Origin: a bacterium | GTDB taxonomy: Bacteria; Zhuqueibacterota; Zhuqueibacteria; Oceanimicrobiales; Oceanimicrobiaceae | Direction: 5' to 3' | DNA length: 64,000 bases | NCBI GenBank assembly: GCA_046757165.1 | Contig: JBHHXT010000002.1 | Span: forward strand, 1 to 64,000 | Shown here: positions 6,301-10,084 of the stretch, piece after piece | Layout of the letters: every line of letters begins with the position of its first letter | Position numbering within the stretch: the stretch's first letter is position 1 | Notes under the pieces: generated by a model | What the model saw: the letters and a program-made list of their open reading frames with translations, nothing else | What the model was told of the DNA's origin: nothing | Database searches by the model: none | Made by a program: the position numbers and the translations under genes

Positions 6301-7335
6301 TCATCGCTCCACCCTTCCGGAGCCAGACCCTTGCATCAGCTTCTTCACCTCTTCAACACCGACATGGTTGAAATCGCCGGGGATGGTTTGTTTCAGGCAG
6401 GAGGCGGCAACCGCGAATTCGACGGCGTCCCGGGTGTTCATTTCTGTGATCAGGCCATAGATGAGTCCGCCGGCGAAAGCATCGCCGCCGCCGACCCGGT
6501 CGACGATTTGAATGTCGTATCGCTTGGTGCGATAGGGCTGGCTGCAATCTTTCTCATCCACCAGGAGCGCACTCCAGCCATTCCGGGAGGCGGAATAGCT
6601 CTCACGCAGTGTGATCGCAACCGCGTCAAACGCATACTCTTTCTTCAATTGCTCGGCGAGCCGAAAGTAGGCGTTCTCATCCAACTGCGCTGATTCGACA
6701 TCCGAGGTCGCTGTTTTGTGTCCCAGACTCTTTTCAGCATCCTCTTCGTTCGCGATGCAGACGTTGACGTCCTCCATCAACGGTTGCATAAAGGCTTGCG
6801 CCTCACGCTCTGTCCAGAGCTTCTTTCTGAAATTCAGATCGCAGCTCACGGTGACACCGGCGGCCTGGGCAGCCCGACAGGCGGCGGCGACGCACTCGCG
6901 CGAACGCTCGCCCAGAGCCGGCGTGATCCCGGTCCAGTGGAACCACATGGCGCCTTCGAACACCCGCGCCCAGTCGACCTCATCTTTGCGCATTTGACTC
7001 ACTGCCGAGGCAGCGCGGTCATAAATGACTTTTGAGGGCCGCTGGCTGGCGCCGGTTTCCAGAAAATAGATGCCGATGCGCTCGCCACCGCGCACGATGC
7101 ATTCATCTCTGACGCCAAACCGGCGCAGGTGGTTGACGGCGGCCTGGCCAATTTCGTGCGGCGGAAGTTTGGTGACAAAGAAACTGTCCAGCCCGTAATT
7201 GGCTAAAGAGACCGCCACGTTGGCCTCCCCTCCACCGTAGGTTGCCTGGTAGCTCCGGGCCTGCACAAACCGGCTGTATTCGGGTGTGGACAGCCGCAGC
7301 ATGATTTCCCCGAAGGTGACGACTTTTTTGCTCAT
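6301..7335 (-). CDS. kdgK: 2-dehydro-3-deoxygluconokinase (PfkB family)
   Basis: FGEIMLRL, GGGEANVA and DRVGGGDAF; adjacent to eda and uxaB. Confidence 0.92.
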   Translation of the reverse strand: MSKKVVTFGEIMLRLSTPEYSRFVQARSYQATYGGGEANVAVSLANYGLDSFFVTKLPPHEIGQAAVNHLRRFGVRDECIVRGGERIGIYFLETGASQRPSKVIYDRAASAVSQMRKDEVDWARVFEGAMWFHWTGITPALGERSRECVAAACRAAQAAGVTVSCDLNFRKKLWTEREAQAFMQPLMEDVNVCIANEEDAEKSLGHKTATSDVESAQLDENAYFRLAEQLKKEYAFDAVAITLRESYSASRNGWSALLVDEKDCSQPYRTKRYDIQIVDRVGGGDAFAGGLIYGLITEMNTRDAVEFAVAASCLKQTIPGDFNHVGVEEVKKLMQGSGSGRVER

Positions 7336-7366
7336 GTGACCCTCCCGTGGGCAAGACGTAACGACT

Positions 7367-7538
7367 CAGATGTTTAGACTGTAGGCTATTAGGCTGTTAG
7401 GTTTTGCGCAATGCTCTCATCAACGCGCCTAAAACCTTTTCTTGCTTGATAGATGTTCAATGCCAATTCGTCTGCTAACTCAAAATATCGAGGTTTCGTA
7501 TGATTTCTCATCGATTCTTCCTACAGCCTATCTACCTG
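7367..7538 (-). mobile_element. TAGGCTG/CAGCCTA-repeat element carrying a deleted four-helix-bundle gene
   Basis: Imperfect terminal inverted repeats (CAGGTAGATAGGCTG ... CAGTCTAAACATCTG on the minus strand). Its ends match the element at 8198-8265. Confidence 0.65.
7389..7511 (-). pseudogene. internally deleted four-helix-bundle (23S rRNA IVP / bAvd-like) gene
   Basis: Frame 1 reads MRNHTKPRYFELADELALNIYQARKGF, like the family N-terminus. A shifted frame reads EKVLGALMRALRKT-stop, like the family C-terminus. The middle is missing. Confidence 0.7.
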
Positions 7539-8177
7539 CATAGTTACGGCAAGGCTCTGTTTCAAAATTCTGGCATTCTCGGTCAGGACTTCAAACCGTT
7601 CCTCTGCGATGGCCTTTTTGTCGAGCAGTGCGCTGCCGACGCCGACGGCGCACGCGCCGGCCTTGATCCACTCCCCCGCGTTCGTGAGCGAGACACCACC
7701 CGTGGGCATGAGCTTGAGGTGCGGCATGGGCGCTTTCACGGCCTTGAAGAATGCCATGCCAACGACATCTGCCGGAAAGACCTTCACGATGTCGGCACCA
7801 GACTCGTGCGCGGCGAGAATCTCAGTCGGGGTAAAGGCGCCGGGCATGGCCGGAATATCGTAGCTGTGCGCCGTTTTGATGATCTCTGGCTTGAAAACGG
7901 GACTGACGACATATTGCGCCCCGGCCTCGATGGCCCGGCGTGCGGTCTCCGCGTCCAGAACAGAGCCCACCCCCACCTGAATGGTGTCGCCCATGGAGCG
8001 GGCGATTTCCTCGATGACCATCAGAGCGTTCGGTGTGGTCATGGTGATTTCAATGGCTGAAATGCCGCCCTTGTGAATCGCCTGCGCGACTTTGCGCAGC
8101 TTGCTGGAATCACTCATTCGGATGACAGCGATGGCGCCCCCTTCGATCAATGTCTGAACCATTTCATCTCTTGGCAC
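7521..8177 (-). CDS. eda: KDPG/KHG aldolase
   Basis: IEITMTTP, GVGSVLD, TPTEI, VKVFPA and MPTGGV. GTG start at 8177 after a GAGGAG Shine-Dalgarno. Confidence 0.95.
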   Translation of the reverse strand: MPRDEMVQTLIEGGAIAVIRMSDSSKLRKVAQAIHKGGISAIEITMTTPNALMVIEEIARSMGDTIQVGVGSVLDAETARRAIEAGAQYVVSPVFKPEIIKTAHSYDIPAMPGAFTPTEILAAHESGADIVKVFPADVVGMAFFKAVKAPMPHLKLMPTGGVSLTNAGEWIKAGACAVGVGSALLDKKAIAEERFEVLTENARILKQSLAVTMQVDRL

Positions 8178-8197
8178 GGTCTTTCTCCTCAATAAAC

Positions 8198-8265
8198 CAG
8201 GTGTTTAGGCTGTAAGGTTTTGCGCGATTCTTCCTACAGCCTAAAAGCCTACAGCCTATCTACCT
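8198..8265 (-). repeat. empty copy of the TAGGCTG/CAGCCTA element
   Basis: Minus strand reads AGGTAGATAGGCTGTAGGCTTTTAGGCTGTAGGAAGAATCG-CGCAAAACCTTACAGCCTAAACACCTG. Both ends match 7367-7538 but there is no cargo. Confidence 0.8.
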
Positions 8266-9792
8266 TTTCTGGCGCAGCGCGCGTTCAACACCCTCGGAAA
8301 TCATTTCATTCAGATTGTTAGCTACGACTTCAACAAATCCGGGCAGGTGCGCCAGATCCGAGCCCCACAGTGTCACGTTGCTGCAGATGGATTCCACAAA
8401 CGCGTGAATGGACTCCCGGCGCTGCGCGTCGACCTCCCGCCACTTGTGGTAGAAATACGCCGCCTGGCTGTCGTTGATCGGGTAGATTTCGTCACCGCGC
8501 TGACCAGAGAAGGAGTCGTTGTCTTCGGCAATGGCCCGCATGAACAGAAGATACGCGGCAAAACCAAAGCAGATCTGGAGCGGCGCCTCGCCGAATTTTT
8601 CATAGTATTTTTCAATCGTGGGCACGACCCTGAGCCGCAATTTCGAGGTCGACTCAAAGGTAATGTCCAAGAGTGCATGGCGCAAGTATGGATTCCGGAA
8701 CCGGTCCAGCACGGAATCGATATAGTCCGCGACTACCCTCTTTCCCATGTCCAGCGTGCGGCCGATCTCCTGCCTCATCACGCTTTCGACCCATTCCGAG
8801 GTCAGCGGATGGGTCATCATGTCGATGACATACCGGTTGCCCACCAGCCACGCCAGGGGGACAGAGACGGTGTGCGTCCCGTTCAAGAGCCGGAGCTTGC
8901 GTTCGCGGTAAGCGGTGATGTCCGGCGCGATCAAGATGGCGGGGTTGGCGTCGCAGAAGGACAACCGTTTGCGCACGGCGGCGTCCCCTTCAATCGCCCA
9001 CAAGCTGTAGATTTCGGCCGTGAGCAGAAGATCGTCCTGGTATCCAAGCTCCTCATACAGAGCACCGAGCTGTTCCGCAGCGGGCTTTCCGGGTACGATC
9101 CGGTCGACGAGCGTGTTGCAGAACCGGTTTGCAGATTCGAGCCAGGCGACAAACTCCTGTTCGAGCCGCCACTGGTCTGCCAGTCGCAGCACGATCTCTC
9201 TCAACGTTGCGCCGTTGTCGGTGATCAGCTCACATGGCAGGATGAGCAAACCTCTATCCTCTGCGCCAGAAAAGGTCTTGAACCGGTGATACAGCACCGC
9301 GGTCAACTTGCCTGGGAAGGAGCGCGGCGGCGTGAAGTGCAACCGGTCTTCAGGGTCGTGCCGAATCCCCACCTCTGTGGTGTTGGAAATGATGATCTCG
9401 ATTTCAGGTTGTTCAGCACATTCCAGCACCTGGCGCCAGCTCTCCTGCGCCACAATCGCCCGGCTGATCGCGGATGAAAGAATAACCTCCTGCACGGGCT
9501 TTCCTTGCTGTACCCCCTGAACACAAACCGTATACAGCCCATCCTGATCGTTCAAACCGGCCCACCGCCTGGAGCTCGTTGACTGCACAACGACAATGCG
9601 TCCGTTGAATCTGCCCCTTCGATTGGCTTGGTCGACGAAAACGTCGGCAAAAGCACGCAGAAACCCACCCGCGCCGAACTGTAAGATCTTCTCAGGCAGA
9701 TCGAATGTCTCAACTTTCGGCAGATCAATGTTCGCGGTCGCTGGCTGTGGCTGCGACAAGAACGCCTTGTTCAGCTTTGGATAATTCCTCAT
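8260..9792 (-). CDS. uxaB: tagaturonate reductase (altronate oxidoreductase)
   Basis: ILQFGAGGFLRAF, ISNTTEVG, SFPGKLT, LPCELI, TLVDRIVPG and KLRLLNGTHT. ATG 9792 is the likely start. Confidence 0.93.
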   Translation of the reverse strand: MRNYPKLNKAFLSQPQPATANIDLPKVETFDLPEKILQFGAGGFLRAFADVFVDQANRRGRFNGRIVVVQSTSSRRWAGLNDQDGLYTVCVQGVQQGKPVQEVILSSAISRAIVAQESWRQVLECAEQPEIEIIISNTTEVGIRHDPEDRLHFTPPRSFPGKLTAVLYHRFKTFSGAEDRGLLILPCELITDNGATLREIVLRLADQWRLEQEFVAWLESANRFCNTLVDRIVPGKPAAEQLGALYEELGYQDDLLLTAEIYSLWAIEGDAAVRKRLSFCDANPAILIAPDITAYRERKLRLLNGTHTVSVPLAWLVGNRYVIDMMTHPLTSEWVESVMRQEIGRTLDMGKRVVADYIDSVLDRFRNPYLRHALLDITFESTSKLRLRVVPTIEKYYEKFGEAPLQICFGFAAYLLFMRAIAEDNDSFSGQRGDEIYPINDSQAAYFYHKWREVDAQRRESIHAFVESICSNVTLWGSDLAHLPGFVEVVANNLNEMISEGVERALRQKR

Positions 9793-9854
9793 TTGGGATA
9801 ACTCTTGTTTTTCATCGCCTGAGAATCCGGTCGGAACGTCTCGCTGCAAAAAAA

Positions 9855-9903
9855 GTCATGTGGCGCTTCGCGCCGTCATTTGCCCTGCGGGCGTCATTTG
9901 GTC
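9855..9903. repeat. GTCAT(G/T)TG units alternating with mini-hairpins
   Basis: GTCATGTG-GCGCTTCGCGCC-GTCATTTG-CCCTGCGGGC-GTCATTTG-GTC. Confidence 0.55.
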
Positions 9904-10084
9904 CTTGAAATCAAAGGAAAAATAACAATCGGAGAGACTAATTCAAGGGAAATTCTTACTTTGGTGCGGAGTTATGTTTCCTGGCAAGATTTGGCCTGAA
10001 CAGATAAGGCGGGATGTTGGATCGGGCTTGAATTAATTGTCTCCCCCCAAAATGGGCGGACATTCAGGTGCGAGAAAAAAAACC

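Follow-up and report, generated by a model that had tools for sequence, protein, structure and literature searches.

Several described systems bear on the elements analysed here. Mobile insertion cassettes (MICs), such as MIC231 with its IS231 ends, are composed of two IS inverted repeats enclosing a passenger gene; they carry no transposase and are moved in trans (PMC6199540). Members of the ISBst12 group of the IS66 family are bounded by 12-bp termini of the GTAAC/GTGAC type, and 8-bp direct repeats flank ISDge4 of this group (PMC12898284). ORF-bearing 23S rRNA intervening sequences (IVSs) carry a PF05635-family protein gene inside an inverted-repeat stem (S23p of Coxiella; XCC0516, PDB 2GSC), and a transposon origin of these IVSs has been proposed as a hypothesis (PMC4990558). 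Avd of diversity-generating retroelements (DGRs) is a distant homologue of the same proteins (PMC10053308), and PMC8700078 and PMC5524665 do no more than list such genes. Finally, Beggiatoaceae contain TAACTGA heptamers which are intergenic, oriented with transcription, provide stops in three frames and are of unexplained origin (PMC4679880); the main text of that paper uses none of the terms S23, helix bundle and intervening.

We analysed a stretch of 64,000 nucleotides (the window; C2:1–64000) of a 6.09-Mb assembly of 531 contigs. Two elements in this window belong to a family whose complete form is a cassette of about 450 bp, in which a small four-helix-bundle gene lies between inverted arms of 7-base repeats and is bounded by 12-bp inverted termini. 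As in MICs and MITEs, there are two IS inverted repeats, a passenger gene and no transposase gene, and deleted derivatives multiply. Compared to the MICs of PMC6199540, the ends are of the IS66/ISBst12 type, the intact size (415–452 bp) is below the lower size of about 700 bp given there, and the gene carried, of the PF05635 family, has inverted heptamer arms of its own. The cassette differs from ISBst12-group elements in having no transposase inside. It shares with the ORF-bearing IVSs a PF05635 ORF inside an inverted-repeat stem, present in the window as remnants, but is found in a protein-coding operon (uxaB, eda, kdgK) and has IS66 termini and target duplications; an assignment as 23S rRNA IVS was rejected since the element is outside a 23S rRNA gene and has no Rfam match. 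A DGR part was likewise rejected: the Avd model NF033474 gave 23–33 bits against a cut-off of 80 bits, no reverse transcriptase lies in the cassette, and the sole one of the genome is on contig C362. The Beggiatoaceae heptamers are a different unit and form direct arrays. No published description of an IS66-ended four-helix-bundle cassette was found in searches of a mainly open-access body of papers. Our best reading is that the two elements are what remains, in MITE-like form, of a mobile insertion cassette of the IS66 family (ISBst12 group).

An earlier note on this DNA, made from the sequence alone, described two minus-strand elements (7367–7537 and 8198–8265) whose ends are inverted repeats of TAGGCTG/CAGCCTA heptamers, and the sequence reads as described. 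The ends given there for the first element, copy 1, had to be moved outward by about 10 bp on each side: copy 1 occupies 7358–7547 (190 bp, minus strand), with a GC content of 41% against 57–60% in the flanking genes. Its left terminal inverted repeat of the IS66/ISBst12 type (12 bp, 7536–7547, minus) and its right one (12 bp, 7358–7369, plus) each match, by eye, 10 of 12 positions of the left end of an IS66 element at locus L023 of a same-family genome. Outside these termini are the two copies of an 8-bp target duplication on the minus strand, the left one (7548–7555) inside the eda coding sequence and identical at 7 of 8 positions to the right one (7350–7357). Inside are a left heptamer arm (7512–7537, minus), which lacks one 15-nt unit and provides the present eda stop at 7521–7523, and a right arm (7367–7398, minus).

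Between the arms, copy 1 carries two minus-strand remnants of one PF05635/TIGR02436 gene: 27 codons from the 5′ end (7431–7511), matching the longest copy of this genome, on contig C340, at 22/27 residues (a family match of 92% over 99 nt was also obtained), and, out of frame with these, 14 codons plus stop from the 3′ end (7397–7441), matching the intact copy L086 at 13/14. At the junction (7431–7441), about 245 nt are gone between two 10-nt microhomologies alike at 8 of 10 positions; the same junction occurs in three other copies. When the 2537 stop-to-stop segments of the window were searched with a profile built from 11 close homologues, the two fragments took the two best places (E 1e-8 for the N-terminal and 0.004 for the C-terminal fragment; next best segment 7.7). 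The N-terminal fragment alone, of about 27–28 residues, gave no PF05635 match in a direct Pfam scan. The profile nevertheless bears out the proposed assignment of the cargo to the 23S-IVP/four-helix-bundle family.

Copy 2 (8198–8265, minus strand, 68 bp) retains both arms and provides the uxaB stop (8260–8262). The earlier note regarded it as empty, with its two ends joined directly. Instead, 11 nt at 8215–8225 (minus) align to the last four-helix-bundle codons of the intact copy L038, so that copy 2 represents a deeper deletion and not an empty form; the reading of the two copies as two stages of decay stands. Terminal inverted repeats matching an autonomous IS and a target duplication of 8–9 bp are present at copy 1 and absent from copy 2. 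The termini of copy 1 are the best kept among 28 paired copies (9/10 and 9/10), those of copy 2 among the worst (3/10 and 4/10). Judged by its sequence, copy 1 qualifies as an IS66-derived MITE and would still be recognisable to a transposase, and copy 2 is likely dead as a mobile unit. Another dispersed repeat lies just upstream of uxaB at 9836–9905, with 93 matches on 71 contigs and about 100-fold contig depth; a similar repeat interrupts the four-helix-bundle gene on C340 at its 3′ end.

Both elements belong to one dispersed family, which counts about 91 loci across 81 contigs of this genome. These were merged from the ends kept by a filtered genome scan (72 left, 54 right, 2 ambiguous), in which a few left-end calls resemble right ends of a subfamily. 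When up to 2 mismatches are allowed, there are 63 occurrences of the left core and 50 of the right core, compared to 1 and 0 in a shuffled genome. The family thus has the many dispersed copies of a MIC or MITE, and no element is present at the orthologous sites examined. Cargo-bearing copies, a search for which the earlier note had suggested, were found here and elsewhere. In this genome the longest, on C340 (538 bp), contains a PF05635 gene (E 2e-30) interrupted at its 3′ end by another repeat, and no intact copy of this cassette family was found. Intact parent cassettes of 415–452 bp occur in relatives; each has a single passenger ORF of 118–120 amino acids and no transposase, and the two parent proteins scanned are TIGR02436/PF05635 members related to PDB 2GSC (E 2e-25). 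DNA matches to copy 1 were obtained in 7 of 20 same-family genomes and in none of 40 more distant ones. Outside loci are named as Desulfobacteraceae, Desantisbacteria and Deferribacteres, which suggests horizontal spread of the cassette; among 26 pattern matches in viral contigs no relative was confirmed.

Conservation extends 10 nt outside the ends as first read, at the 72 left and 54 right ends, and fades outward. The consensus terminus of the cassette is a 12-bp sequence starting with GTAAC. It is identical, letter for letter, to the left end of the L023 element, a complete single-ORF IS66 (NF033517, 324 bits), and nearly identical to the termini of ISDge4, for which an 8-bp repeat is described (PMC12898284). 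These termini and the target duplication, both overlooked by the earlier note, point to the mover; the proposal made there of a transposase-less mobile unit is upheld.

All three strict terminus pairs of the genome, namely copy 1 and two pairs of a sister family, are flanked by a duplication at 7–8 of 8 positions, seen at length 8 only when lengths of 4–12 were tested. Looser pairs have one in 4 of 10 cases. The two family members among the duplication-bearing pairs are the copies keeping the terminal five bases at both ends. An exact left end was found at 31 outside loci; 10 have no right terminus in reach and 4 are duplicates, and 8 of the 17 distinct copies left show an 8-bp duplication of at least 7/8, compared to 0.7% of 272 cross-pair controls. 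Two more carry an exact 7-bp repeat, by eye. Further duplications were observed in relatives (9/9 at L037 and 6/8 at L101), and none at L081 and L086, two long outside copies with perfect termini, nor at the L023 IS itself. The test is weak when averaged over the 29 paired copies of this genome: a duplication at fixed offset occurs in only 2, with free offsets in 4 (control 4.2%; weak alone), and the mean match is 2.5 against 2.1 of 8, also weak, since most termini are eroded. At L045 (G007) and, in this genome, at C124:12150–12348, the left terminus is mostly gone and the 8-bp duplication is kept beside the arm; termini can therefore be deleted after insertion. The sister MITE family (C138:4833–4965 and C90:5407–5549, with duplications of 8/8 and 7/8) has the same 12-bp IS66-type termini around a palindromic interior unrelated to the cassette, and gave 31 BLAST matches on 16 contigs.

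The host operon is on the minus strand: uxaB, encoding tagaturonate reductase (8260–9792; NF002969 above cut-off, start as given by a simple gene caller), eda, encoding KDPG/KHG aldolase (7521–8177; TIGR01182 above cut-off), and a kdgK-like PfkB sugar kinase gene (6301–7335; PF00294, with KDG kinases as best NCBIfam matches, below cut-offs). Removal by script of copy 1 and one repeat adds five codons to eda, whose TGA stop then overlaps the start of kdgK, as is typical of coupled genes. From this result, copy 1 entered 15 nt inside eda, upstream of the kdgK ribosome-binding site, and the last five eda codons were likely replaced by eight codons provided by the element. The stop codons of eda and uxaB do lie inside the elements, as the earlier note had it, but copy 1 does not sit exactly at the 3′ end of eda: it was inserted within the coding sequence. 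When the 68 nt of copy 2 are removed, uxaB meets a stop after two further codons, at the ribosome-binding site of eda. Comparison with relatives, also suggested there, showed the element to be absent at 8 of 8 same-family loci in which eda is followed by kdgK; these are from other genera and are not exact empty alleles, and the order uxaB-eda-kdgK is kept in one, L002. No exact empty-site joint was present among 15 listed of 24 metagenome joints, from contigs, which drop rare variants. In the same-family genome G018, a different heptamer-arm hairpin is located at the same eda-kdgK junction (L007:1115–1311). Transfer of eda as a composite transposon was rejected, as copy 1 is flanked by a duplication of its own and L002 shows synteny for uxaB-eda-kdgK.

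A targeting of gene ends, as first proposed for these elements, is not supported, nor is it needed to explain their position. Within 33 nt, both element ends present a stop in every reading frame, and survival of insertions in gene tails is thus enough; copy 1 itself entered 15 nt before the old eda stop. By the calls of the simple gene caller, 29 of 42 co-oriented upstream genes end no more than 22 nt from the left core or inside it, and 17 of the 42 stop inside the arm or the nominal terminus. Selection against disruptive insertions likely accounts for this near-gene-end position. The elements are also co-oriented with host transcription at 42 of 59 left and 35 of 45 right ends, where about half would be expected. 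Transposition in trans accounts for neither this orientation bias nor the purifying selection on the gene described below.

Most copies have their own deletion. One deletion junction, which removes the gene start, is common to 9 of the 72 left ends, and 4 of the 9 share a second deletion. Broken copies have thus likely transposed, and an intact gene is not needed in cis. Erosion of left and right termini is uncorrelated (rho -0.03, n=28), and conservation is lower in the termini, at 62%, than in the unseeded inner arm, at 76%. The existence of two classes of copy in the genome was rejected, since erosion forms an outward gradient and affects the two ends independently. Copies often contain further repeats close to the right arm, as on C46, C61, C72, C124, C292, C311 and C340, so that cassette copies look like insertion hot spots.

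We found no IS66 transposase domain in the 531-contig assembly, and the L023 transposase used as query gave no match there. Only a gutted classical IS66 element was found (C58:12975–13400), whose transposase gene is without its whole central part including the DDE domain. Repeats are often missing from assemblies. PF03050 is present in 7 of 20 same-family genomes, one of them with matching termini. As linked movers, RAYT, GxxExxY and reverse-transcriptase genes were rejected, none being flanked by this repeat, by eye. The single reverse transcriptase of the genome, on C362, resembles a group II intron ORF and lies beside a transposase-like ORF, also by eye. GxxExxY (PF13366) genes or remnants at C3:9506–9856, C241:4303–4437 and C117:11699–11842 are also bracketed by short inverted repeats, which are of another unit. 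At L032:2580–2658 (G013), an IS66-type terminus immediately followed by a run of another heptamer is found downstream of an IS66 transposase gene.

The passenger gene is under purifying selection, with dN/dS of 0.05–0.23 in all unsaturated pairs among the 11 close homologues. In a tree of 26 rows, from which the truncated L108 was left out, the 11 close genes group in one clade, with support of 99/97, and the 7 genes with termini, of which 2 have partial ones, do not (p-AU 0.033). A single origin of the IS66 ends is therefore not supported, and there was more than one loss or gain of termini. Heptamer arms without IS66 ends are found in most related genes: paired IS66 termini within 300 nt occur in none of four close homologues of other families, which have the same arms, and in none of 14 distant ones with other arms. 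The element is thus two-layered, with an older gene-plus-heptamer cassette inside ordinary IS66 ends.

Taken together, both elements are internally deleted remnants of the cassette of about 450 bp, which was probably moved in trans by an IS66-family (ISBst12-group) transposase. Such a transposase would insert the cassette nearly at random, leaving an 8-bp target duplication. Survival would be largely confined to copies in gene tails and in the gaps of operons, since the ends stop translation in three frames and spare the ribosome-binding site of the next gene. They would then decay by deletion at short repeats, the two termini eroding independently. For copy 2, which has neither termini nor duplication, this route is inferred from kinship only. 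Alternatively, the inner unit of gene and heptamer arms might be mobile by its own non-IS66 route, perhaps via the four-helix-bundle protein, the IS66 ends being a secondary vehicle and terminus-less copies such as copy 2 having come natively. The absence of paired termini from the close and distant homologues would fit, as would the pairing of flanking arms with a score of at least 25 in 24 of 27 cassettes tested, the presence of own repeat arms at 4 of 5 other PF05635 matches in the genome (by eye), the purifying selection on a gene of which this genome has no intact family copy found, and the uxaB stop placed at the eda ribosome-binding site by excision of copy 2. Nevertheless, there are no two classes of copy, a gene-broken derivative reached 9 loci, and the only reverse transcriptase found resembles a group II intron ORF. 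Moreover, the genes with termini do not group as one clade, so that the close copies without them may be products of terminus loss. We consider an own route improbable.

Still less probable is that the unit targets gene ends in operons and acts as an intervening sequence of mRNA, its hairpin being cut out by RNase III. The claim of the earlier note that both copies can fold as hairpins was confirmed (z -3.85 and -3.35), RNase III is encoded in the genome, 71–78% of copies are co-oriented with transcription, and in vitro RNase III cuts the Coxiella IVS, which bears the related S23p ORF (PMC4990558). However, any element with inverted ends folds, copy 1 was inserted inside the eda frame, Rfam gave no match for the elements, and the tests for selection at the RNA level were negative: G-U and A-C mismatches in the arms are equal (48 vs 48, no strand asymmetry), the sense strand folds better in only 17 of 31 copies, and no outer-stem covariation was detected within copies (p 0.46). 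RNase III cleavage could occur as a side effect. A spread as REP/REPIN-like repeats by an HUH (RAYT/Y1) transposase is very unlikely: the repeats are dispersed intergenic palindromes and the genome has three Y1_Tnp matches, but none of the three genes is flanked by this repeat, by eye, and the 8-bp duplications found disfavour it, duplications of this kind with terminal inverted repeats being a signature of DDE and not of HUH enzymes. That the two copies, 660 bp apart, result from a local duplication, the case named in the earlier note as refuting its reading, or from an assembly artefact can be practically dismissed. The family is spread over about 91 loci and 81 contigs, and each copy has sequence that the other lacks. 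With 91 loci per 4503 called genes, about 2 doubly flanked genes are expected by chance. Contigs from 4 runs of one hydrothermal-vent metagenome study, one of which may be the source of the assembly, span both copies with 0–2 differences.

The preferred reading, transposition in trans from IS66-type ends, makes the element appear to work like a mobile insertion cassette decaying into MITEs. Both are already known, and the IS66-ended four-helix-bundle version is the variant here, within limits: both window copies are decayed, and IS66 ends are missing from most of the gene family. We tentatively raise a broader possibility, which we hold to be rather unlikely, that the four-helix-bundle gene and its inverted arms of heptamers form an independent selfish mobile module, whose protein would bind to these arms and favour the insertion of its cassette into transcribed operons or the expression of the cassette there, the IS66-ended family being one lineage that borrows a DDE transposase. 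If true, this would explain the purifying selection on a decaying gene, the sense-strand bias, the 23S rRNA IVSs and bacterial heptamer repeats. The family bears on the origin of ORF-bearing rRNA IVSs and on the role of PF05635 proteins, for which it gives a concrete and testable vehicle: a 450-bp cassette, IS66 ends and a matching transposase in a same-family genome. For its host, the cassette rewrites gene ends, as in 17 of the 42 co-oriented upstream genes, and for the four-helix-bundle gene family it would likely show one route of spread.
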